In this document: in pieces, positions 6,988 through 16,121 of the stretch
Layout of the letters: every line of letters starts with the position of its first letter
Numbering within the stretch: position 1 is the first letter of the stretch
DNA from: Gammaproteobacteria bacterium
GTDB lineage: Bacteria > Pseudomonadota > Gammaproteobacteria > Burkholderiales > SG8-39
NCBI GenBank assembly: GCA_041496705.1
Contig: JBGQFD010000001.1
Location: forward strand, 39,127 to 103,126
Reading direction: 5' to 3'
DNA length: 64,000 nt
Made by a program: the position numbers and the translations under genes
The notes under the pieces: generated by a model
What the model saw: the letters and a program-made list of their open reading frames with translations, nothing else
Told to the model about the DNA's origin: nothing
Database searches by the model: none

Positions 6988-7845
6988 ATGATCCTGATGG
7001 CGCTCGCCGAAACCGAGATCCTCGCGCAACACTTGGACGATCCCGACTGGGTGGTGTTCGATTGCCGCCACGACCTTGCCGATCCGGGTCGCGGGCGCGC
7101 CGACTTCCTGAAATCGCACGTCCCGGGAGCGCGCTTCGCGCACTTGGACGACGACCTGTCCGGGCCCCGCAACGGGAAAAACGGACGCCATCCCCTCCCC
7201 AATCCCTCCGTGCTTGCGGAAAGACTCGGGCGGGCGGGCGTCGATTCGGGCAAGCAGGTCGTCGCTTACGATGCGCAAGGGGGCCTGTTCGCGGCCAAGT
7301 TATGGTGGCTGCTGCGCTGGCTCGGGCACCTTCCGGTCGCGGTGCTCGACGGCGGCTGGAACCAGTGGACTGCCGAAGGGCGTCCGCAGACCGCGGACGT
7401 GTCTGCGCCGCGGGCGGCGCAGTTTTCCGGGCAAGCCGACGATAGCTGGGTGGACGCGCAATTCGTGCTTGGCAGCCTCGGCGAGCCCGGCAGCGTGCTT
7501 CTCGATGCCCGAGCGCCCGACCGCTTCCGCGGCGAGAACGAAACACTCGACCCGGTGGGCGGGCGCATTCCGGGTGCGCGCAACCGCTTTTTCCGGGACA
7601 ACCTGGATGCGAAGGGTTGTTTCAAGCCTCCGCAGATGCTCGCGGCAGAACTCTCCGCGGCGCTCGGGGGTGCGCGCCCGGAGCGCAGCGTGCACTATTG
7701 CGGCTCGGGCGTTTCGGCCGCGCACAATCTCCTGGCGATGGAAATCGCCGGCTTGCGCGGCGCCCGCCTCTACCCGGGCTCCTGGAGCGAATGGTGCGCC
7801 GACTCTTCGCGACCCGTGGCGGCGGGTGAGCCGCAACCGGGCTGA
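6988..7845 (+). CDS. tandem-rhodanese sulfurtransferase (thiosulfate/3-mercaptopyruvate type)
   Basis: 285 aa with two rhodanese-like halves. Active-site loop YCGSGVSAAH followed by YPGSWSEW. Confidence 0.85.
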   Translation: MILMALAETEILAQHLDDPDWVVFDCRHDLADPGRGRADFLKSHVPGARFAHLDDDLSGPRNGKNGRHPLPNPSVLAERLGRAGVDSGKQVVAYDAQGGLFAAKLWWLLRWLGHLPVAVLDGGWNQWTAEGRPQTADVSAPRAAQFSGQADDSWVDAQFVLGSLGEPGSVLLDARAPDRFRGENETLDPVGGRIPGARNRFFRDNLDAKGCFKPPQMLAAELSAALGGARPERSVHYCGSGVSAAHNLLAMEIAGLRGARLYPGSWSEWCADSSRPVAAGEPQPG

Positions 7846-7855
7846 TGAGTCACCC

Positions 7856-8242
7856 ATGGCGCTCGGATGGCTTGCCGACTCGATCCTCGTCCTTCACGTC
7901 TTGTTCGTGTTGTTCGTCGTGGGTGGCCTTGCCTTGATTCTCGCCGGGGCGCGACGCTGGAGCTGGATCCGCAACCGGGCGTTCCGCACGCTGCATCTTA
8001 CGGCGATCGCCTTCGTCGCGATCGAAGCTCTCCTCGGCATCACCTGCCCGCTGACGCGCTGGGAAGACCTGCTGCGAGCCACCCGACCCGAAGAGCGCAG
8101 TTTCATCGGAAGGTGGCTTGCGCGCTTTCTCTACTACGATTTCCCGGAATGGGTCTTTGCCTCGGCCTATTTCGCCTTCGCTCTAACGGTCGCCTGGGCC
8201 TGGCGCGCGATTCCGCCGCATTCAAGGCGGGCGCCACCATGA
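7856..8242 (+). CDS. DUF2784-like small membrane protein
   Basis: 128 aa starting at the internal Met of ORF 7214..8242. Three or four hydrophobic helices and a CPLTRWE motif. Family assignment is from memory. Confidence 0.6.
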   Translation: MALGWLADSILVLHVLFVLFVVGGLALILAGARRWSWIRNRAFRTLHLTAIAFVAIEALLGITCPLTRWEDLLRATRPEERSFIGRWLARFLYYDFPEWVFASAYFAFALTVAWAWRAIPPHSRRAPP

Positions 8243-8264: not shown

Positions 8265-9059
8265 ATGAAGCAGTACCTGGATCTCATGCGCCACGTGCTG
8301 GAGCACGGGGCGAAAAAGACCGATCGCACCGGGACCGGTACGTTGTCCACGTTCGGCTGGCAGATGCGCTTCGACCTGCGGCAGGGTTTTCCTCTGCTCA
8401 CCACCAAGAAAATCCACCTCAAGTCGATCGTCTACGAGCTGCTTTGGTTCCTGCGGGGCGACACCAACGTGCGCTGGCTGCAGGAGCGCGGCGTAAGCAT
8501 CTGGGACGAGTGGGCAGACGAGCGCGGCGAACTCGGCCCCGTGTACGGCTCGCAGTGGCGCAGCTGGCCGTCAGCCGGCGGCGGCTCGATCGACCAGATC
8601 GCGCAGGTCTTGAAATCGATCCGCGAGCGCCCCGACTCGCGCCGCCATGTCGTCACCGCCTGGAATCCGGCCGAGATCGACCGCATGAAGCTGCCGCCGT
8701 GCCACGCGCTCTTCCAGTTCTACGTCGCCGAGGGCGAGCTCTCCTGCCAGCTCTATCAGCGCAGCGCCGATATCTTCCTCGGCGTGCCGTTCAACATCGC
8801 CTCGTACGCGCTGCTTACCCTGATGACCGCGCGGGTCACGGGCTTGAAAGCCGGCGAATTCGTCCACGTCCTGGGCGACGCGCATCTGTACCTCAACCAT
8901 CTCGACCAGGCGAAGGAGCAGCTGTCGCGCACACCCAGGCCGCTGCCGCGCATGCGGCTCGACCCGGCTGCGACCGACATCTTCGGCTTTCGCTACGAGG
9001 ATTTCACCCTGGAAGGCTACGATCCGCACCCGGCGATCAAGGCACCGATCGCAGTCTAG
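8265..9059 (+). CDS. thyA: thymidylate synthase
   Basis: 264 aa with [37 protein letters not shown] and the catalytic [11 protein letters not shown]. Confidence 0.97.
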
Positions 9060-10045
9060 CCGGCTCGAGCCGCGTCGGCGGCGGGGCGGCGCAGTAAGGC
9101 CGCAGGCGCAACCGGCATGCCTGCCTGAGGAATGCCGGCCGGCCCGGACGCACCATCGATCGGAACGCCGAGCAAGACCCGGTGCGTTTCCTTTCCGGCG
9201 GCATCGCGGTAGACCAGCTCATTCGTGTCGAACTCGTATTCCGGATGTCGCTGGTCGTTCCACTCGTTCAGGAAGTACGTGTAGAAGGGCACGAACAGTC
9301 CGTTGCGTGGCTCGCGGTGCTGGAGCGCGAAGACGTACTCGGGCTGTTGGCTGACCTGGAATCCGCTGTGGCAGTGCTGCACCCAGACGTGGTCGCCGAG
9401 CACGACCACCTTCCAGAAAGGCTCCTCCTCGTAGAACTTGAGTTTCACCTGCTTTCCCAGCCTGCGCAGCCCGGAGAGGTACGCGATGCTCGCCTCGATC
9501 TCGGTTTGCAGGGTGAGCACGGTGATGTCCGGCGGCAGGGAGTCAGCACGCCGGCGCATGTGCATCCCCACCGGGCTGAGCAGCATCACCCTTACTTCGT
9601 AGGCTTTCTCCAACGTTCCACGCAGCAGACTTTCGTCCGAGACGAAGGTGTCGTAGCCGGTCAGCGTCAGGACGAACGCGTCACGTGCTGCCGGAAGCTG
9701 CTTCACCAGGACGCGCTCACGCCAGCGCGTCAGCCATCCGCGTCCGCCGTTCCGTGCGTAGACGAGGGATGCAAGCCGCGCGATCCGCACTTTCTGCCGG
9801 CCGTCCCAGGCGATCTTGGCGAGATTGAAGAGCAGCGCGAGTATTGAGGCAAGGCCGATCTCGCTGGCGAGCAGAAAACTGGCGTTGCTTTCGACCTTCG
9901 GCCACCACTGATTCAGGATGTAGCTTGCGCCTTGCGGCAGCGAGAAGGCGACGGCAACCGCAAGCAGGGTCATGAGGCCGTGCGAGAGGATCTGTTTCAG
10001 GCTGACCCACAGGCTGTGCGCCTGTATTCCCTGGTGCATCTGCAT
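9056..10045 (-). CDS. membrane protein of unknown function (N-terminal TM helices plus soluble domain)
   Basis: I prefer the ATG at 10045 (MQMHQG...), which forms a TGATG stop/start overlap with the upstream peptidase gene. I recognise no family. Its stop overlaps the thyA stop in convergent orientation. Confidence 0.6.
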
Positions 10046-11034
10046 CAACGCTGCCACGCCCGTTCGGTCCTGCCCGCACGCGCGGCAACCGCGTGCAGGG
10101 TGCGAGTCGCCGTATCCTCGAGCGGCCCGCCGAGACTCACGGCTATTTGTGCTTCTGCCAGTGCCTCCTCATAGCGATCGAGGTCGGCGAGCGTCTGCGC
10201 AAGGTTATTGTGCGCGGCGGCCGACCGGGGGTGAGTGAGGGTCGCCCGGCGGAAAGCCCGCTCTGCAGTCTCGAAGTCGCCCTGGACGTAAGCGGTGTTT
10301 CCCAGACCGAGGAGCGCCACGAGGTTTTCCGGCGCGCGTCTCAAGACGCTGTCGTAAGCGGTCCGCGCGGGCTCCGGCTGACCGCCTTTTTCGAGCTTCA
10401 TGACGGCGCCCAGATAATCCGGAACGGCTAGGCTGGCTGGCAAGCGCTGCGGAGGCAGCGCGAGCATCGCCCAGCGACCGCCGCCCTTCCACGTGCGTTC
10501 GAAGGAATCGAACGTCATCTCGACCCTGCGCTTGCTCCCCGAGCGCAGCACGATGCGCCCGGCGTCCAAGTCATAGCCGACCGCCACTGCGTAGTGCCAG
10601 GCGGGTTTCCAGTCGAAAGCGAGGTTCTGCAGGACGACAACCGGGGTGCCGGCCGCGATCTCGGCGAGCAAGTCCGGGAGGTTCGGTTTCAACTCGACTG
10701 CAACGAAGCCGTTGCGGCGCGCTGCGGCGAGCATTTCCACCTGGAGGCTGCCGTGTCTGCCTGGAACATAGACCTGCGGCCGCAACGTCTCCGGCTCGAC
10801 CGGATTGCCGCCGGCACCGAGCACCATCGCCAAGGCGGCCGGGCCGCACTGGTACTCGTCCTGCGCGTAGAACGGAACGCCGTCGAGTTCGACGCGTTGC
10901 GGAATTTGCTCGAGCCCGTCTTGCGCGACCGCCTGGAGCCGCGGTGCGGCGCAGCCTGCAAGCGATATCAGCACGAAGCCCAGCGCCAGAAAGCGGCGGG
11001 CGCTACGCCGGCACGGCGAGGAGCGATCGCTCAC
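10045..11034 (-). CDS. PA2778-family C39-like cysteine peptidase lipoprotein with C-terminal TPR repeats
   Basis: 329 aa with lipobox LISLAGC, papain/C39-like catalytic motifs YQCGPAALAMVL and WHYAVAVGYD, and a TPR-like C-terminus. GTGA start/stop overlap with the upstream gene. Confidence 0.8.
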   Translation of the reverse strand: MSDRSSPCRRSARRFLALGFVLISLAGCAAPRLQAVAQDGLEQIPQRVELDGVPFYAQDEYQCGPAALAMVLGAGGNPVEPETLRPQVYVPGRHGSLQVEMLAAARRNGFVAVELKPNLPDLLAEIAAGTPVVVLQNLAFDWKPAWHYAVAVGYDLDAGRIVLRSGSKRRVEMTFDSFERTWKGGGRWAMLALPPQRLPASLAVPDYLGAVMKLEKGGQPEPARTAYDSVLRRAPENLVALLGLGNTAYVQGDFETAERAFRRATLTHPRSAAAHNNLAQTLADLDRYEEALAEAQIAVSLGGPLEDTATRTLHAVAARAGRTERAWQR

Positions 11035-11438
11035 TTGGCCGTGCGGGTGAAGCTAAACACTTTGGTGAACCCCAGTATGTCGGTCACCAGGAGAATGACG
11101 AACGCCAGGAACCCGACCAAGAGGGCGGCCGAGATCGCATCGCCGCCTGCGGGAAGCGCGTCCAGGCGCGCGGCAACGCGCTCGATTTCGTCATCGCTCA
11201 GGGCGTCCACCCGGGCCTTCGCGTCCGAGGCGCTGACGCCATGGCGCTCCAGCCCGGCACGGACGTCGTCGCGCGCGAGAAGGGTCGCAATTCGTTCGCG
11301 CGCGCTGGCGCGCAGCGGCTGTACGGTGTCCGCCTCATCGGTCGCGACCAGTTCCGCGTGAGCCACCGGAACCGGCAGGCCGAAGCAGAACATGCTGACG
11401 ACGAGCACGCGCGCGACGCTCCTGTAGACGCTCTTCAT
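11031..11438 (-). CDS. PA2779-family protein (signal peptide, helical periplasmic region, C-terminal TM anchor)
   Basis: 135 aa with signal peptide ending VAHA, the SDDEIERVAARLDALPAGGD segment and the hydrophobic tail AISAALLVGFLAFVILLVTDILGF. GGAGAG Shine-Dalgarno upstream. Usual partner of PA2778-family peptidases. Confidence 0.7.
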   Translation of the reverse strand: MKSVYRSVARVLVVSMFCFGLPVPVAHAELVATDEADTVQPLRASARERIATLLARDDVRAGLERHGVSASDAKARVDALSDDEIERVAARLDALPAGGDAISAALLVGFLAFVILLVTDILGFTKVFSFTRTAK

Positions 11439-11480
11439 GTTGTTCTCTCCTGGGTTGAATCGTTCGTGGGTAGCGGAATC

Positions 11481-11963
11481 TTACCCCCGCACGAGCTTTC
11501 CCTCGACCACGCGCACCTTGTCGCCGACGGCGAACGCGGGAGGGCTTGAGAGCGACACGGTGCGAAACGACCCGTCGTCCATGCGCACCGTAACGCGGTA
11601 GGCGTGGCGCTTCTTCACCCCCGGCTCGCCCGTGGCAAAGGCACCCCCAGCGAAACCCAGGATCGTCGTGGAGCGACCCGCCTCCGCATCACCGCGCCGT
11701 CCGCCGGCTTGCAGTCCTGCGGGAGCCCCGGCATCGGCGCCGTTTTCTGCAGACTCGTCTCGAACTTCGAGAATCCGGATCGATACAACCCCGCCACAAA
11801 TCGCGCAACTACCGGCCCGAGCCGTCACGGCCGCCGGCGCTACCGCCCCCGGCCGAACCCCGGGGTGTCCGCTGAGCATCTCGATCGCCAAGCCGAGCAG
11901 GGCTGCGCCGGCCGCGATTGCTGCCAGCGGGCCGATCCAGGCCCAGGACGTTCTAGCGCTCAT
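11481..11963 (-). CDS. small membrane-anchored protein, related to glycine-zipper / 17-kDa-antigen-like proteins
   Basis: 160 aa starting at the internal Met of ORF 11481..12047. GGGAGAAG Shine-Dalgarno 6 nt upstream. N-terminal TM helix, CAICGGVVSI motif, and C-terminal YRVTVRMDDGSFRTV...GDKVRVVEGKLV. Confidence 0.55.
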   Translation of the reverse strand: MSARTSWAWIGPLAAIAAGAALLGLAIEMLSGHPGVRPGAVAPAAVTARAGSCAICGGVVSIRILEVRDESAENGADAGAPAGLQAGGRRGDAEAGRSTTILGFAGGAFATGEPGVKKRHAYRVTVRMDDGSFRTVSLSSPPAFAVGDKVRVVEGKLVRG

Positions 11964-12043
11964 GAATAGCTTCTCCCTCGGGACGCGTACGCGCCTGGAC
12001 GAGTTTCCGGCGCGACAGAATCGTGCAATTCCGGCAGGACACG

Positions 12044-12058
12044 GCAAGCACCGTGCCA
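12044..12058 (-). promoter_or_regulatory. sigma-54 (-24/-12) promoter
   Basis: The minus strand reads TGGCACGGTGCTTGC, matching the TGGCACG-N4-TTGC consensus at every fixed position. It lies about 80 nt upstream of the 11963 start codon and directly downstream of a sigma-54 activator gene. Confidence 0.65.
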
Positions 12059-12123
12059 GAGAGTACTTGAACAGTCGCTTCAGATAGTTATGCGGGAAAT
12101 CGAGACGCGCACCGAGCCCGAAG

Positions 12124-12141
12124 TGTCACCTGAGGACGACG
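12124..12141. promoter_or_regulatory. second, imperfect TGTC-N10-GACG site
   Basis: TGTCACCTGAGGACGACG, matching 7 of 8 half-site positions, about 70-85 bp upstream of the -24 element. Confidence 0.3.
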
Positions 12142-12190
12142 CCCGCTTGAGCGCAACCGAGAATCAAGCTGAATCGAAAAGGATTTGCCC

Positions 12191-12208
12191 TGTCGCCCCG
12201 GGGCGACA
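12191..12208. promoter_or_regulatory. candidate enhancer-binding (GlrR/QseF-type) site TGTC-N10-GACA
   Basis: Perfect palindrome TGTCGCCCCGGGGCGACA about 135-150 bp upstream of the sigma-54 promoter. It has the same half-site and spacing pattern reported for E. coli GlrR. Confidence 0.45.
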
Positions 12209-12222
12209 CGGGGCACGCGCGT

Positions 12223-13563
12223 TCAGCTCTTTTCGAGCTTGAACATCTTGGATTCGAGCTGGTGGCGCTCCAGGAGCTTGTAGAACTCGGTGCGGTTGCG
12301 CTGCGCAAGCTTCGCCGCCTGGGTTACGTTGCCCCCGGTCATACGCAGAATGCGAACCAGATAGTCGCGCTCGAATGCGCCGCGGGCCTGTTCGAGCGAA
12401 GCGAGCGGCATCGGCTGCTCCTTGAGCGCTTGCTGCGCCAGGGAGGCCGGTACTACGCCGGAGGGGCACAGTGCCACCATCTGTTCCACCGCGTTGACCA
12501 GCTGGCGCACGTTTCCGGGCCACGCCGCTGCGAGGAGCAGCTCAAGCGCCTCTGGCGCAAAAGCGCTCACATCCTTCTTGTAGCGCTCGGCGGTGCTCTT
12601 GAGGTAGTGCATGGCGATGGGAGCGATGTCCTCGCGCCGCTCGGCGAGAGGCGGCAACGCCAGGGAAACGACGTTCAGGCGGTAATACAAGTCTTCCCGG
12701 AAGCGCCCTGCTTTCATCTGGGCGTCGAGGTCCCGGTGCGTGGCGGAGATGACGCGCACGTCCACCGGCATGCCCTGCGTGGCTCCGACCGGCCGCACCT
12801 CGTGGTCCTGCAGCACGCGAAGCAGCTTCGCTTGGAGAGACAACGGCATGTCGCCGATCTCGTCCAGGAAAAGCGTGCCGCCGTCGGCCGCAGGCACCAA
12901 CCCCTTGTGATCGTACATCGCACCGGTAAAAGACCCCTTTCGATGGCCGAACAACTCCGATTCGAGCAGGTTTTCGGGAATCGCGGCGCAGTTCACGGCC
13001 ACGAAGGGCCCGTCGGCGCGGCGGCTGGCACGGTGGATAGCCCGAGCGAGGAGTTCCTTTCCGGTGCCGCTGGCACCCTGGATGAATACGCTCGCATCCG
13101 ATTGAGCGACCAGCCGCGCCTGGTGGAGCACGTTCTCCATCTTGGGGCTCTGCGTCACGAACTCGCGCCGCCAGTCCTCCTCGATTGTCCCCGGCCCGGA
13201 TCCAGAGAGCCGCAGCGCCTGCTCGACCTGCTCGAGCAACTGTTTTCCGTCGAACGGCTTGGGCTGAAAACCGAATACACCGCGCCGGGTGGCGGAAACG
13301 GCGTCGGGGATCGTGCCATGCGCGGTCAGGATGATGACGGGGAGCATCGGCGCCTGCTTGCGCACCTCCTCGAAAAGAGACATGCCGTCCATCCCGCCCA
13401 TTTTGAGGTCGGTGATGATCAGGTCGGGCCGGGATGCTGCGAGCGCGGCGAGCGCCCTTTCGCCGCTGTCCACAGCCTGAACGCGGTAGCCCGCGGCGCT
13501 CAAACGCAATGACAACAGCTTGAGGATGTCAGCGTCGTCGTCGACGAGAAGAATCGTGCTCAT
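12223..13563 (-). CDS. sigma-54-dependent response regulator (NtrC family, GlrR/QseF-like)
   Basis: 446 aa with a receiver domain (LLVDDDADILK...ITDLKMGGMDG), AAA+ motifs GASGTGKE, ESELFGHRKGSFTGA and GTLFLDEIG, and a C-terminal Fis-type HTH (GNVTQAAKLAQRNRTEFYKLL). Confidence 0.9.
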   Translation of the reverse strand: MSTILLVDDDADILKLLSLRLSAAGYRVQAVDSGERALAALAASRPDLIITDLKMGGMDGMSLFEEVRKQAPMLPVIILTAHGTIPDAVSATRRGVFGFQPKPFDGKQLLEQVEQALRLSGSGPGTIEEDWRREFVTQSPKMENVLHQARLVAQSDASVFIQGASGTGKELLARAIHRASRRADGPFVAVNCAAIPENLLESELFGHRKGSFTGAMYDHKGLVPAADGGTLFLDEIGDMPLSLQAKLLRVLQDHEVRPVGATQGMPVDVRVISATHRDLDAQMKAGRFREDLYYRLNVVSLALPPLAERREDIAPIAMHYLKSTAERYKKDVSAFAPEALELLLAAAWPGNVRQLVNAVEQMVALCPSGVVPASLAQQALKEQPMPLASLEQARGAFERDYLVRILRMTGGNVTQAAKLAQRNRTEFYKLLERHQLESKMFKLEKS

Positions 13564-14066
13564 TTTGGTCGTGCCTTTTCGCGCTCGATGATCCCGCGTT
13601 CGATGGCTTTCAAAGCGTCGAGTTGTTCCCGCAACTGCGCCGAGCGACGCTGCTCCCGGGTGCGCTCGCTGATCTGCGCGTACAGCAGCCCTGCAAACTG
13701 CTGCAGCGACCCCTTCGGCAGCTCGAGGGCGGCGGACTCGGCGAGCGGCTCGAGCAAGCCGGCCGCGCGAGTGTCGTCGTTGAAAGCGGTTCCGGGCAGG
13801 GCGAGCAGCAGTGCCAGCCTGACCCGCCCATAGACGCCCCGGCCCTTGGAAAACATCTGGGTCGAAACGTTCAACTCACGCCGCTGCTCGTCAGCATGCA
13901 TGGCCGCGACTCGCTGAACGTAACCGACGAGTTCCGCGACCACGCGGGCTTCTTCGGCCTCGCGTGTCTGCACTACGGCGGGCGAGTTCCCGCCCGCGAA
14001 CGGAAAAGCCGCGCAGCCGGCCAGTACCGAAGCCCACGTTGCCATTATCGCCAGACTAAGACGCAC
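13560..14066 (-). CDS. helical lipoprotein, positional equivalent of QseG/YfhG
   Basis: A GTG start at 14066 gives the signal peptide (M)RLSLAIMATWASVLAGC with a lipobox. The ATG at 14045 is the alternative start. It overlaps the kinase stop and the regulator start, so all three are tightly coupled. Confidence 0.55.
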   Translation of the reverse strand: MRLSLAIMATWASVLAGCAAFPFAGGNSPAVVQTREAEEARVVAELVGYVQRVAAMHADEQRRELNVSTQMFSKGRGVYGRVRLALLLALPGTAFNDDTRAAGLLEPLAESAALELPKGSLQQFAGLLYAQISERTREQRRSAQLREQLDALKAIERGIIEREKARPK

Positions 14067-15531
14067 GGCCCCGGGACGCAGCGGCGACGAGCGGAATCGA
14101 GACGCGGAAATGCGCACCGCCGGCCTGGTTGTCCACGACCTCGACCCTCCCCGCATGAGCAACAACGAACTCCCTGACGATGGCGAGCCCCAGGCCGCTG
14201 CCCTGCACCCGACCGTGATGCTGGTACTCGCCCTGATAGAACCAGTCGAAAATCCTCTCCCCATCCTCGGGCGGTATACCCGGGCCCGCGTCCCCGACGT
14301 CCAAAATCACGTTATCTCCCTCGCGTCGCAGCGCCAAGGAAATAATACCCCCATCGGGGGAGTATTTGATCGCGTTTGAAACTAGGTTGGCCACCACCGC
14401 GCGCAGCTTGTCCGCGTCCGCCTCGAGAGCGACAGGCTGCAGTTGCAGTTCCGCGCGAATGCCCCTGGCCCGGGCCGCAAGCCGATGATCCTCGATGACC
14501 TGGTCCACGATGCGATCGAGTCGCAGCATCGACATGTCCAGTCGCCCGACACTCTCCTGGGCGCGGTGGTAACTGAGCAGGTCTTCGATCAGAGCCTGCA
14601 GCTGCACGCTCTTCTGCTGCAAGATGGCGACGATCTCCCGTTGCGGAGCGGCGAGCGGTCCGGCCGTTCCTTCCATCAAGAGTTCCGAGCCTTCCCGCAA
14701 CGCCGTGAGCGGCGTCTTCAGCTCATGCGAGACGTGGCGCAGGAAGAATCGCTTTTGCTGTTCCAGCTCGATCAGCCGCTGGCGCAGCCACTCTAGGCGC
14801 CCCCCGAGATACTTCAGGTCGGCCGGCCCGCCGACGCGAATGCCGGCATCGAACTCACCCGCACCCAGCCGCCGGATCGCCTGGTCGAGTTGCCGGATCG
14901 GCCTGGCGATGAGCAGCGTAACCCCGACGGCCAGGAATATTCCCAGCGGAATCGTGGCCGCCAGCTGTAACCAGAGCGTTTTCTGCGCGCGCTCGGCCGT
15001 GCGACGCATTGAGTCGATCTCCCGATCGATCAGGGCGTTGCTCGTGTTCAGCACTTCACGAGCCAGCTCCGACAGCGAGACATAGCCTTCTATGAGGGCC
15101 GTCTTCTCCGCGCGAACCGACGGACGGCGCAGCAAGGTTTCGTACAATCCCTGTTCCTTGTCGATCGTGGCGTTGAGGCCGCGCAATTGCAGTTCGTCCA
15201 GCGGCTGCAGGGACAGTTCGCTCGTGTTGGATTTGAAGTTCCCTCTCAACCTGGCGTAGTCGTTGAGGAGCTCCGCGTCATCGAGGATCAGGTACTGGCG
15301 CGCCACCCGCTCGAGCGCCGTCGTCTGCTCGACCAGCAAGCGGCTGCCGCGCGAAGCCTGGGCTGCCTGCGAGACTGCGGTCTGACTTTGCCCCGCAAGC
15401 TCCTCGACGTACACTGCCGCGTTGTAGAACGCCACGATCAACGGCGCGGCCACCAGTGCGAACGCGAGCAGCAGCAGGCTGAGGAACGATCTGGGGTAGT
15501 AGCGACGGGGAAAGTCGAGCCCGATTTTCAT
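14056..15531 (-). CDS. sensor histidine kinase (two TM helices, periplasmic domain, HAMP, HisKA, HATPase)
   Basis: 491 aa with H-box RHVSHELKTPLTAL, N-box NLVSNAIKYSP and G-boxes DVGDAGPGI and GSGLGLAIV. Confidence 0.9.
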   Translation of the reverse strand: MKIGLDFPRRYYPRSFLSLLLLAFALVAAPLIVAFYNAAVYVEELAGQSQTAVSQAAQASRGSRLLVEQTTALERVARQYLILDDAELLNDYARLRGNFKSNTSELSLQPLDELQLRGLNATIDKEQGLYETLLRRPSVRAEKTALIEGYVSLSELAREVLNTSNALIDREIDSMRRTAERAQKTLWLQLAATIPLGIFLAVGVTLLIARPIRQLDQAIRRLGAGEFDAGIRVGGPADLKYLGGRLEWLRQRLIELEQQKRFFLRHVSHELKTPLTALREGSELLMEGTAGPLAAPQREIVAILQQKSVQLQALIEDLLSYHRAQESVGRLDMSMLRLDRIVDQVIEDHRLAARARGIRAELQLQPVALEADADKLRAVVANLVSNAIKYSPDGGIISLALRREGDNVILDVGDAGPGIPPEDGERIFDWFYQGEYQHHGRVQGSGLGLAIVREFVVAHAGRVEVVDNQAGGAHFRVSIPLVAAASRGRAS

Positions 15532-15623: not shown

Positions 15624-16121
15624 ATGAGCCTCGCCCGATCCGTCTCTATCATCGCCGCGGTGGGCGGCAACAGGGTCATAGGTCGCGGCGGCCGCTTGCC
15701 GTGGCACCTTCCGAACGATCTGAAGCATTTCAAGCAGGTGACCCTTGGCCACACCGTGATCATGGGACGCAAGACCTTCGAGGCCATCGGCAAACCTCTG
15801 GCGAGGCGCAGCAACGTCGTCGTGACGCGATCGCGCGAGTGGAATCACCTGGGCTGCAGAACCGCTGCATCACTCGAGGCGGCTCTGGAAACTCTAGGGC
15901 CGGCGGAGGCCCCTTTCGTAATCGGCGGCGCGGAAATCTACGCACTCGCCCTGCCCATCGCGGGACGCCTCTGCCTGACGGAAATCGAGCGCGATTTCGA
16001 CGGCGATACCTTCTTTCCCGAGTTCAACCGGGCCCAGTGGCACGAGGTATCACGCGAGTCGCAGGTGCTCGAAGGCGGCGACGGCTTCCGTTACGCCTTC
16101 GTCGAGTACCGGCGCGGCTAG
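15624..16121 (+). CDS. folA: dihydrofolate reductase
   Basis: 165 aa with IAAVGGNRVIGRGGRLPW, LKHFKQVTLGHTVIMGRKTFEAIG and VIGGAEIY. Confidence 0.95.
   Translation: MSLARSVSIIAAVGGNRVIGRGGRLPWHLPNDLKHFKQVTLGHTVIMGRKTFEAIGKPLARRSNVVVTRSREWNHLGCRTAASLEAALETLGPAEAPFVIGGAEIYALALPIAGRLCLTEIERDFDGDTFFPEFNRAQWHEVSRESQVLEGGDGFRYAFVEYRRG

Follow-up and report, generated by a model that had tools for sequence, protein, structure and literature searches.

A predicted sigma-54 promoter with paired GlrR-type activator sites downstream of a QseE/QseG/QseF-type gene module in a Burkholderiales genome

A stretch of 64,000 nucleotides from a Burkholderiales bacterium (lineage SG8-39; GenBank assembly GCA_041496705.1, contig JBGQFD010000001.1, positions 39,127 to 103,126), referred to here as the window, carries what is probably a functional sigma-54 promoter belonging to the adjacent QseE/QseG/QseF-type (GlrK/GlrR-type) signalling module. 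The promoter and two activator sites all lie within a 259-bp gap between the gene for a GlrR/QseF-like regulator (ending at 12223) and a four-gene cluster on the minus strand (starting at 11963). Computationally, these elements exist, are selectively conserved, track GlrR-type genes across lineages and are constrained in their spacing. To our knowledge, nearly all work on QseEF/GlrKR has been done in enterobacteria, in which it directly targets glmY and rpoE. For activators of this class, control of genes next to their own is common.

The promoter element and its predicted start

The promoter (12043–12058, minus strand) reads TGGCACGGTGCTTGCC, with the GG of the −24 region at 12057–12056 and the GC of the −12 region at 12045–12044. 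The minus strand at 12058–12044, TGGCACGGTGCTTGC, is the sole exact TGGCAC-N5-TTGC within the 64 kb, for which shuffling gives an expectation of 0.14; the pattern appeared once in 14 of 100 shuffles of the 64 kb. The element matches 11 of 12 positions of TGGCACG-N4-TTGCW and is the best of seven window matches scoring at least 10/12. A sequence-only reading of this DNA had proposed a near-consensus sigma-54 promoter downstream of the regulator gene; both the element and its position are borne out, and its predicted start falls ~70 nt ahead of an open reading frame (ORF) with a good Shine–Dalgarno sequence. When one mismatch was tolerated, the promoter pattern and the activator-site pattern TGTC-N10-GACA both occurred in the window at chance counts, so single matches are weak evidence taken alone.

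The start estimate was calibrated on control loci that encode the small RNA (sRNA) GlmY, where the Rfam-defined GlmY starts 14–16 nt past the C of the −12 GC. This calibration places the predicted start in the window at ~12030–12032. The 5′ untranslated region (UTR) predicted from the sequence is ~70 nt long (11964–12032, minus strand) and contains the Shine–Dalgarno sequence GGGAGA. Its folding is not significant relative to shuffles (z = −0.16). An Rfam scan of the window returned zero RNA families, GlmY and GlmZ included. A simple scan of 11000–13000 for sigma-70 promoters and terminators detected no site of the sigma-70 type, a result of limited weight at 66% G+C, and the one terminator-like match fell inside the regulator gene.

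Two putative activator sites upstream of the promoter

The distal activator site (ABS-A, 12191–12208, no strand assigned) is TGTCGCCCCGGGGCGACA, a perfect 18-bp palindrome whose centre lies at ~−167 relative to the predicted start. The 64-kb window has no second exact TGTC-N10-GACA (0.69 matches expected in all). The proximal site (ABS-B, 12124–12141, likewise without strand) reads TGTCACCTGAGGACGACG on the plus strand and CGTCGTCCTCAGGTGACA in promoter orientation. It is centred at ~−100, 67 bp from the distal site, and carries one mismatch among eight core positions. The perfect palindrome and the imperfect copy of the earlier reading, which quoted the latter in its plus-strand form, are both present, and the attribution of the pattern to GlrR agrees with the published GlrR site consensus, TGTC-N10-GACA (PMC3045617).

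Scoring with a position weight matrix trained on the sites of other loci, with the window sites excluded, placed the distal site first in the window at 16.2 bits; the runner-up scored 8.2 bits. The proximal site ranked sixth among ~64,000 window positions.

Two further blocks are conserved in alignments of the gap. The first, ATTCAGC (12168–12174, minus strand), lies between the two sites and is possibly a site for a DNA-bending protein; its TCAGC is invariant in both alignments described below. The second, TAACTATCTGAAGCGACTGTTCAAG (12066–12090, minus strand), spans ~−59 to −35 and is well kept in the six closest loci, while more distant loci retain just TAAC and a few bases. At E. coli glmY, sites for integration host factor (IHF), with the consensus quoted as WATCARNNNNTTR, flank the proximal activator site and are essential (PMC3045617). 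Both blocks in the window sit where IHF sites would be expected, and by eye neither resembles the consensus well.

The adjacent signalling module

The regulator (12223–13563, minus strand) is a sigma-54 activator response regulator of 446 residues with Response_reg, Sigma54_activat and AAA_lid_14 domains; its match to HTH_8 is weak and sub-threshold (19.4 bits, cut-off 22). It carries the predicted phospho-acceptor D52, the Walker A motif GASGTGKE, a Walker B motif and a GAFTGA-type loop that reads GSFTGA, a variant common to five other orthologues. Its best NCBIfam model is GlrR (NF011695, 608.2 bits), followed by NtrC (421), and it is 56–57% identical to the GlrR proteins of Xenorhabdus and Arsenophonus. 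These two are true GlrR, because the kinase gene in their loci is preceded by Rfam GlmY. The recognition helix RNRTEFYKLL is common to the window regulator and enterobacterial GlrR. The helix region is GNVTQAAKLAQRNRTEFYKLL in the window and GNVTHAARMAGRNRTEFYKLL in Xenorhabdus, and the KYRADFY of a neighbouring clade is clearly distinct. We read the regulator as an orthologue-like relative of GlrR outside the curated enterobacterial range, and its GlrR/QseF-like character, as first proposed, also fits the order of the surrounding genes.

These genes follow the order kinase–lipoprotein–regulator, as in qseEGF, on one strand and with ends that overlap or abut. The QseE/GlrK-like sensor histidine kinase (14056–15531, minus strand, 491 residues) has HAMP, HisKA and HATPase_c domains. 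It aligns over its full length with kinases that adjoin GlrR orthologues and is 33% identical to the Xenorhabdus kinase. Its sensor region contains an ERxxRQY motif (LERVARQY, R75 and R78), for which the Xenorhabdus and Arsenophonus kinases have MERSYRQY in the alignment. Two kinase arginines, R70 and R73 of Salmonella, are reported to lie at the QseG interface (PMC12691602). R75 and R78 would correspond to these residues, a numbering match that we infer from that report.

The small lipoprotein between the two genes (13560–14045, minus strand) is QseG-like by position and has the lipobox LAGC. The public-record gene call gives 161 residues, and an alternative start lies at 14066. Homologues occupy the equivalent position in five of the compared loci (L001, L002, L003, L009 and L011; L-numbers are labels of compared loci), and the C-terminal helix reads L..LKAIER. 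Comparison of the family with enterobacterial QseG by hhalign gave a weak match (E = 0.026 across just 19 columns).

A real sigma-54 promoter might still answer to a different enhancer-binding protein encoded elsewhere, with the sites incidental or belonging to another factor. Such proteins work in trans, so that adjacency is no proof of a link; the regulator is the sole activator gene visible in the 64-kb window, and the proximal site is degenerate. However, the motif is the published GlrR consensus, the adjacent regulator retains the GlrR recognition helix, and the site pair follows GlrR-type genes regardless of the target gene or the side on which the promoter lies. We therefore consider a different activator improbable, though it is the alternative that survives best.

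Conservation in close relatives

Assignment of the promoter to the adjacent module draws on its footprint in close relatives. Seven homologues of the first cluster gene product, a 160-residue protein, defined a close-relative set (loci L165–L174); in L165–L173 this product is down to 48% identical. The order in these loci is the regulator gene (with kinase and lipoprotein genes where the contig extends), the gap, the gene for the 160-residue protein, a DUF6627 gene and a C39/TPR gene. The gap was aligned for the six closest loci (A1) and with more distant loci included (A3).

The invariant islands of the gap are TGTCG-N8-CGACA (the distal site), TCAGC, CGTCG-N6-GGYGAC (the proximal site), TAAC and TGGCA..G.G.TTGC. 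The TGTCG...CGACA ends and TGGCA..G.G.TTGC are invariant across the seven related loci, and the deviant first base of the proximal site is kept in all seven. Spacers and 5′ UTR diverge between relatives; L169 and L172 have UTR insertions, and the UTR has diverged in the more distant L169, L170, L172 and L173. The centre of the distal site varies without compensation (TGTCGT/GCGACA in L166, TGTCGC/ACGACA in L169), which argues for a protein-binding site over an RNA hairpin.

This pattern bears on the idea that the palindrome is chiefly a transcript-end hairpin or terminator of the signalling operon, with read-through or a missed sigma-70 promoter serving the downstream genes and a −24/−12 match that arose by chance. 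The palindrome does begin 15 nt past the stop codon and could form a G+C-rich hairpin (centroid −17.6 kcal/mol), and a lone consensus match arises in 14 of 100 shuffles. However, the hairpin is followed by AGGGCAAAUCC rather than a U-tract, the terminator scan found nothing there, and the predicted fold of the palindrome region does not surpass that of shuffled sequences (z = −0.65). The half-sites stay fixed, the changes at the centre are non-compensatory, and the non-palindromic proximal site is conserved equally. Amid diverging flanks the −24/−12 element is invariant, and 16 of 34 GlrR-type loci have such an element downstream of the regulator gene. A terminator is thus a very unlikely explanation of the conserved gap.

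Recurrence, spacing and helical phasing in distant orthologues

The sigma-54 promoter next to a GlrR-type gene recurs well beyond the close relatives. The nearest regulator in species-representative genomes is 70% identical to that of the window (L001). A distant set was assembled from 39 non-redundant loci of species-representative genomes and metagenomes, with regulators 45–70% identical. A promoter was counted when it scored at least 10/12 for the −24/−12 pattern, on the regulator strand and 50–300 nt past the regulator stop. Such a promoter was found in 19 of the 39 loci, against 1.45% expected per locus (binomial P ~6e-25), and the observed promoters lie 92–293 nt past the stop codon. Five loci whose regulators are 45–50% identical (L019, L102, L103, L104 and L129) were dropped as orthologues, as they have the recognition helix KYRADFY instead. 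With only GlrR-type recognition helices retained, a downstream promoter is present in 16 of 34 loci.

Upstream of most of these promoters lies a TGTCG-N8-CGACA-like pair 56–68 bp apart, chiefly 64–68; the window pair is 67 bp apart. Measured over 23 promoters (L001–L101 and the window), the distance from the centre of the proximal site to the GG clusters at 74–78, 83–86, 95–100, 106–107 and 116–122 bp, with the window at 76 bp. The distances show a periodicity of 10.5–11 bp (R ~0.6, p ~3e-4; p = 0.0014 once near-duplicates are removed). Helical periodicity of this kind is the face-of-helix constraint expected of an enhancer-binding activator.

Enterobacterial loci served as controls. Two of them (L010 and L096) have three perfect sites, spaced 32–33 and 63 bp apart, together with a promoter that precedes the kinase gene. 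A third control, L013, combines two perfect sites with a −24/−12 match that is weaker (9/12), and GlmY follows. Rfam GlmY comes directly after the promoter in all three. The sequence-only reading had stated that the E. coli regulator drives an sRNA located upstream of the kinase gene, and the controls do place sites and promoter immediately before GlmY.

Other placements of the cassette also occur. In L006, L007 and L091 it lies upstream of the kinase gene on the same strand, and in a third arrangement (L011, L016, L092 and L093) it lies upstream of the kinase gene and points away from it. In L001 the regulator gene is followed by two sigma-54 promoters in tandem (7478–7493 and 7948–7963): the first precedes a 92-residue lipoprotein, and the second, with two perfect sites 56 bp apart, precedes a homologue of the 160-residue protein.

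These arrangements also speak to whether the sites might autoregulate the signalling operon, for example as a roadblock or through control at the 3′ end of the regulator gene, instead of activating downstream genes. As autoregulation would allow, the distal site runs into or adjoins the 3′ end of the regulator gene in several orthologous loci (−31, −12, +6 and +15 relative to the stop). However, the spacing of the sites to the sigma-54 promoter, which is directed away from that gene, is phased, and where that promoter is upstream of or divergent from the kinase gene, the sites accompany the promoter and not the regulator 3′ end. Autoregulation is accordingly as improbable as termination. Least probable of all is a main product that is a short regulatory RNA or leader like glmY, with the protein genes on a separate promoter: the E. 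coli target is an sRNA and two distant loci (L005 and L099) show ~130–150 nt free of ORFs and then a terminator, but in the window an ATG with a good Shine–Dalgarno sequence comes just ~70 nt after the predicted start, and the 5′ UTR contains no terminator, significant structure or Rfam match.

Weighing the assignment and a proposed mechanism

A sigma-54 promoter served by the adjacent QseE/QseG/QseF-type module remains the probable reading, and several points count against it. The last base of the −12 region is C instead of A/T, and the proximal site departs from the core consensus (CGTC in place of TGTC). No convincing IHF site was seen by eye, and no formal IHF scan was run. The 608.2 bits of the regulator fall below the NCBIfam GlrR equivalog cut-off of 763. 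The rpoN gene is not in the 64-kb window, and the RpoN of the organism is assumed from the intact activator. An extra housekeeping promoter, or read-through out of the regulator gene, may contribute. Finally, the compared loci are phylogenetically non-independent, which makes the P values for recurrence and periodicity optimistic.

The scheme that follows is drawn by analogy, and it covers what we infer about regulator binding, the need for RpoN and for the regulator, the precise start site, how far the operon extends and the signal that induces it. As in E. coli, the kinase, probably modulated by the lipoprotein encoded between both genes, would phosphorylate the regulator at D52. Regulator dimers would occupy both sites of the TGTCG-N8-CGACA type, at ~−100 and ~−167, and form an active AAA+ oligomer on one helix face. 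DNA looping would then carry this oligomer to the closed complex of RNA polymerase and sigma-54 at TGGCAC-N5-TTGC, which would be opened through ATP hydrolysis. Transcription would proceed from ~12030–12032 into the SlyB-like gene, and the transcript would most likely continue across the PA2779- and PA2778-family genes and perhaps the 333-residue gene.

The downstream gene cluster

The first cluster gene (11481–11963, minus strand), called in public records, encodes a membrane-anchored protein of 160 residues that is distantly SlyB-like. Its family is characterised by a transmembrane anchor at the N-terminus and a strongly conserved beta domain at the C-terminus, together with a Gly/Ala-rich segment and an invariant CxxCG. 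There are 466 homologues, several of them labelled SlyB or glycine-zipper by their sources, and the family profile matches E. coli SlyB (PDB 7ojf) with E = 7.6e-4. The N-terminus, MSARTSWAWIGPLAAIAAGAALLGLAIEML, contains no lipobox. An AlphaFold2 model has a mean predicted local distance difference test score (pLDDT) of 58.7, with low confidence outside the beta domain. A Foldseek search of the PDB with this low-confidence model ranked SlyB tenth (E = 1.2) and gave no significant match, so the relation to SlyB rests solely on the weak profile match. We treat the SlyB-like character as a lead, not as a family membership.

Pfam searches at E ≤ 5 gave nothing usable for the 160-residue protein, the small lipoprotein, the 333-residue protein, a 57-residue protein of the distant loci and the L001 lipoprotein. 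In the 160-residue family the CxxCG directly precedes the first beta strand, and the aligned stretch of SlyB is without cysteines there. The weak Foldseek matches include DUF35-type proteins, which are Zn-ribbon/OB-fold proteins; the 160-residue protein has one Cys pair only.

The second gene (11031–11438, minus strand) encodes a PA2779-family/DUF6627 protein of 135 residues (NCBIfam NF033919, 103.6 bits, cut-off 40; Pfam PF20332). The 42-nt gap that separates it from the first gene contains CAGGAGAG, read as a Shine–Dalgarno sequence, and no evident terminator hairpin or T-run. The third gene (10045–11034, minus strand) overlaps the second by 4 nt and encodes a PA2778-family C39-like cysteine peptidase of 329 residues with TPR (NF033920, 316.6 bits, cut-off 150; Pfam Peptidase_C39_2 and TPR). 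In addition to a signal peptide, the PA2779/DUF6627 protein carries the motif PAGG|D (G98–G99, window 11142–11147) just ahead of a C-terminal transmembrane helix. C39-type peptidases cleave after Gly-Gly, and the two proteins may be a peptidase–substrate pair.

A protein of 333 residues (9056–10057, minus strand) with no Pfam or NCBIfam match is encoded next, in a gene that overlaps the C39 gene by 13 nt and is possibly the last of the operon. It is present in L165 and L170 and absent from L169, L172 and L173, where thyA comes directly. The spacing of the genes, with a 42-nt gap without an evident terminator and overlaps of 4 and 13 nt, fits an operon. The sequence-only reading had spoken of a protein-coding envelope operon. 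The protein-coding part stands, and the word envelope is backed by predicted signal peptides and transmembrane segments and by weak homology only.

On either side of the locus is a gene of thymidylate/folate metabolism: thyA (8265–9059, plus strand) and, beyond the kinase gene, folA (15624–16121, plus strand). The thyA gene converges on the end of the cluster, overlapping the stop of the 333-residue gene by 4 nt, and its position is kept in L169, L170, L172 and L173.

Output genes across lineages

Judged from the genes that follow it, the output of the promoter is lineage-specific and consists mostly of small exported or membrane proteins. The 160-residue family is the predicted target in the clade of the window and at the second promoter of L001. 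Small exported EF-hand proteins follow the promoter in L003, L089 and L095, by Pfam, and in L092, L007 and L091, as read from sequence. BON-domain proteins follow it in L004, L101 and L094 (Pfam), DUF1328 in L095, and MdoG/OpgG, then a second large ORF read as opgH, in L009. A bactofilin-like protein, again as read from sequence, is the target in L011 and L016. A conserved protein of 53–57 residues is the target in L085, L002 (7572–7745), L086 and L087. This protein (..PEF..WL...ELAERVNAARSVV) has no Pfam family and no signal peptide, and the regulators of its four loci are 66–68% identical to that of the window, next after L001 (70%).

Two loci may produce RNAs instead. In L005 (7452–7590) and L099 (2379–2530), the equivalent sigma-54 promoter and its site pair lead into ~130–150 nt without a plausible ORF, at the end of which stands a clear intrinsic terminator. 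Permissive Rfam scans of these sRNA-like regions found no GlmY-like or other family, only terminator-hairpin noise. They are candidate GlrR-dependent sRNAs of non-enteric bacteria.

The original suggestion of a rewired regulon is supported computationally by the 16 GlrR-type loci with a downstream promoter and by their lineage-specific targets. A broader and more tentative view, which we hold with slightly less than even confidence, is that QseE/QseG/QseF outside Enterobacterales would be a self-contained local switch, in which a two-site phased enhancer and a promoter are repeatedly coupled to an adjacent small envelope gene. Control of GlmY would then be one lineage-specific outcome, and GlmY would have independent counterparts, though not homologues, in the putative sRNAs of L005 and L099.

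Significance and comparison with known systems

If correct, the assignment provides the first concrete direct target of QseEF/GlrKR in Betaproteobacteria and places SlyB-like, PA2779/DUF6627 and PA2778 C39 genes under a defined envelope-sensing pathway. It would also supply a rule for target prediction: a TGTCG-N8-CGACA pair ~65 bp apart, with the proximal site 75–120 bp upstream of the −24 region and in helical phase. More generally, a conserved sensor–enhancer–promoter cassette can be re-coupled to differing output genes. The finding is incremental in that it extends a known envelope-stress circuit.

GlrR sites with sigma-54 promoters are already known at glmY, glmZ and rpoE P2, as are qseEGF clusters in Betaproteobacteria. 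What is new is where the cassette lies, which genes it targets and, outside enterobacteria, its phased architecture with two sites. In the searchable literature, which leaves out subscription journals and regulon databases, we found no GlrR/QseF target described outside Enterobacterales and no description of these three features. Ralstonia PehR was considered as a betaproteobacterial counterpart and set aside, as it is a longer regulator that is merely aligned with PilR, GlrR, FleR and MtrA in its paper.

Clusters of qseEGF have been reported in Betaproteobacteria and Acidithiobacillia, and they resemble the present module in gene order and in the kinase arginine pair (PMC12691602). The passages searched in that report treat their distribution and the QseG–QseE interface and mention no promoters or targets outside Enterobacteriaceae. 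SlyB, a stress-induced outer-membrane lipoprotein of E. coli and Salmonella, shares with the 160-residue protein the order of beta strand, Gly/Ala-rich segment and C-terminal beta domain. However, the 160-residue protein has a transmembrane anchor in place of a lipobox, a CxxCG and no Pfam glycine-zipper match.

The closest comparison is with the glmY (and glmZ) promoters of E. coli, Yersinia and Salmonella, which likewise combine a −24/−12 element with upstream TGTC-N10-GACA sites (PMC3045617). The glmY activator also comes from a kinase–lipoprotein–regulator module at the same locus, and it has the same recognition helix. In the glmY controls 63 bp separate the two sites nearest the promoter; the window sites are separated by 67 bp. 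There are three sites at glmY (~−140, −203 and −235, derived from L010) and two in the window (~−100 and −167). The glmY promoter has an overlapping sigma-70 promoter, whereas none was detected in the window by the simple scan. It also lies upstream of the kinase gene, whereas the window promoter lies downstream of the regulator gene. The product of glmY is an sRNA; that predicted for the window is an mRNA for membrane or exported proteins.

Nonetheless, a protein-coding target of QseF is not unprecedented, because E. coli rpoE P2, as cited in PMC6075780, is a sigma-54-dependent, QseF-activated promoter with such a target. On that description, rpoE P2 and the window promoter are alike in that a QseF-dependent sigma-54 promoter drives, or in the window would drive, a protein-coding gene of cell-envelope homeostasis. 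They differ in that rpoE, a sigma factor gene, is not linked to qseEGF, whereas the predicted target in the window is an adjacent envelope operon of structural or processing type.

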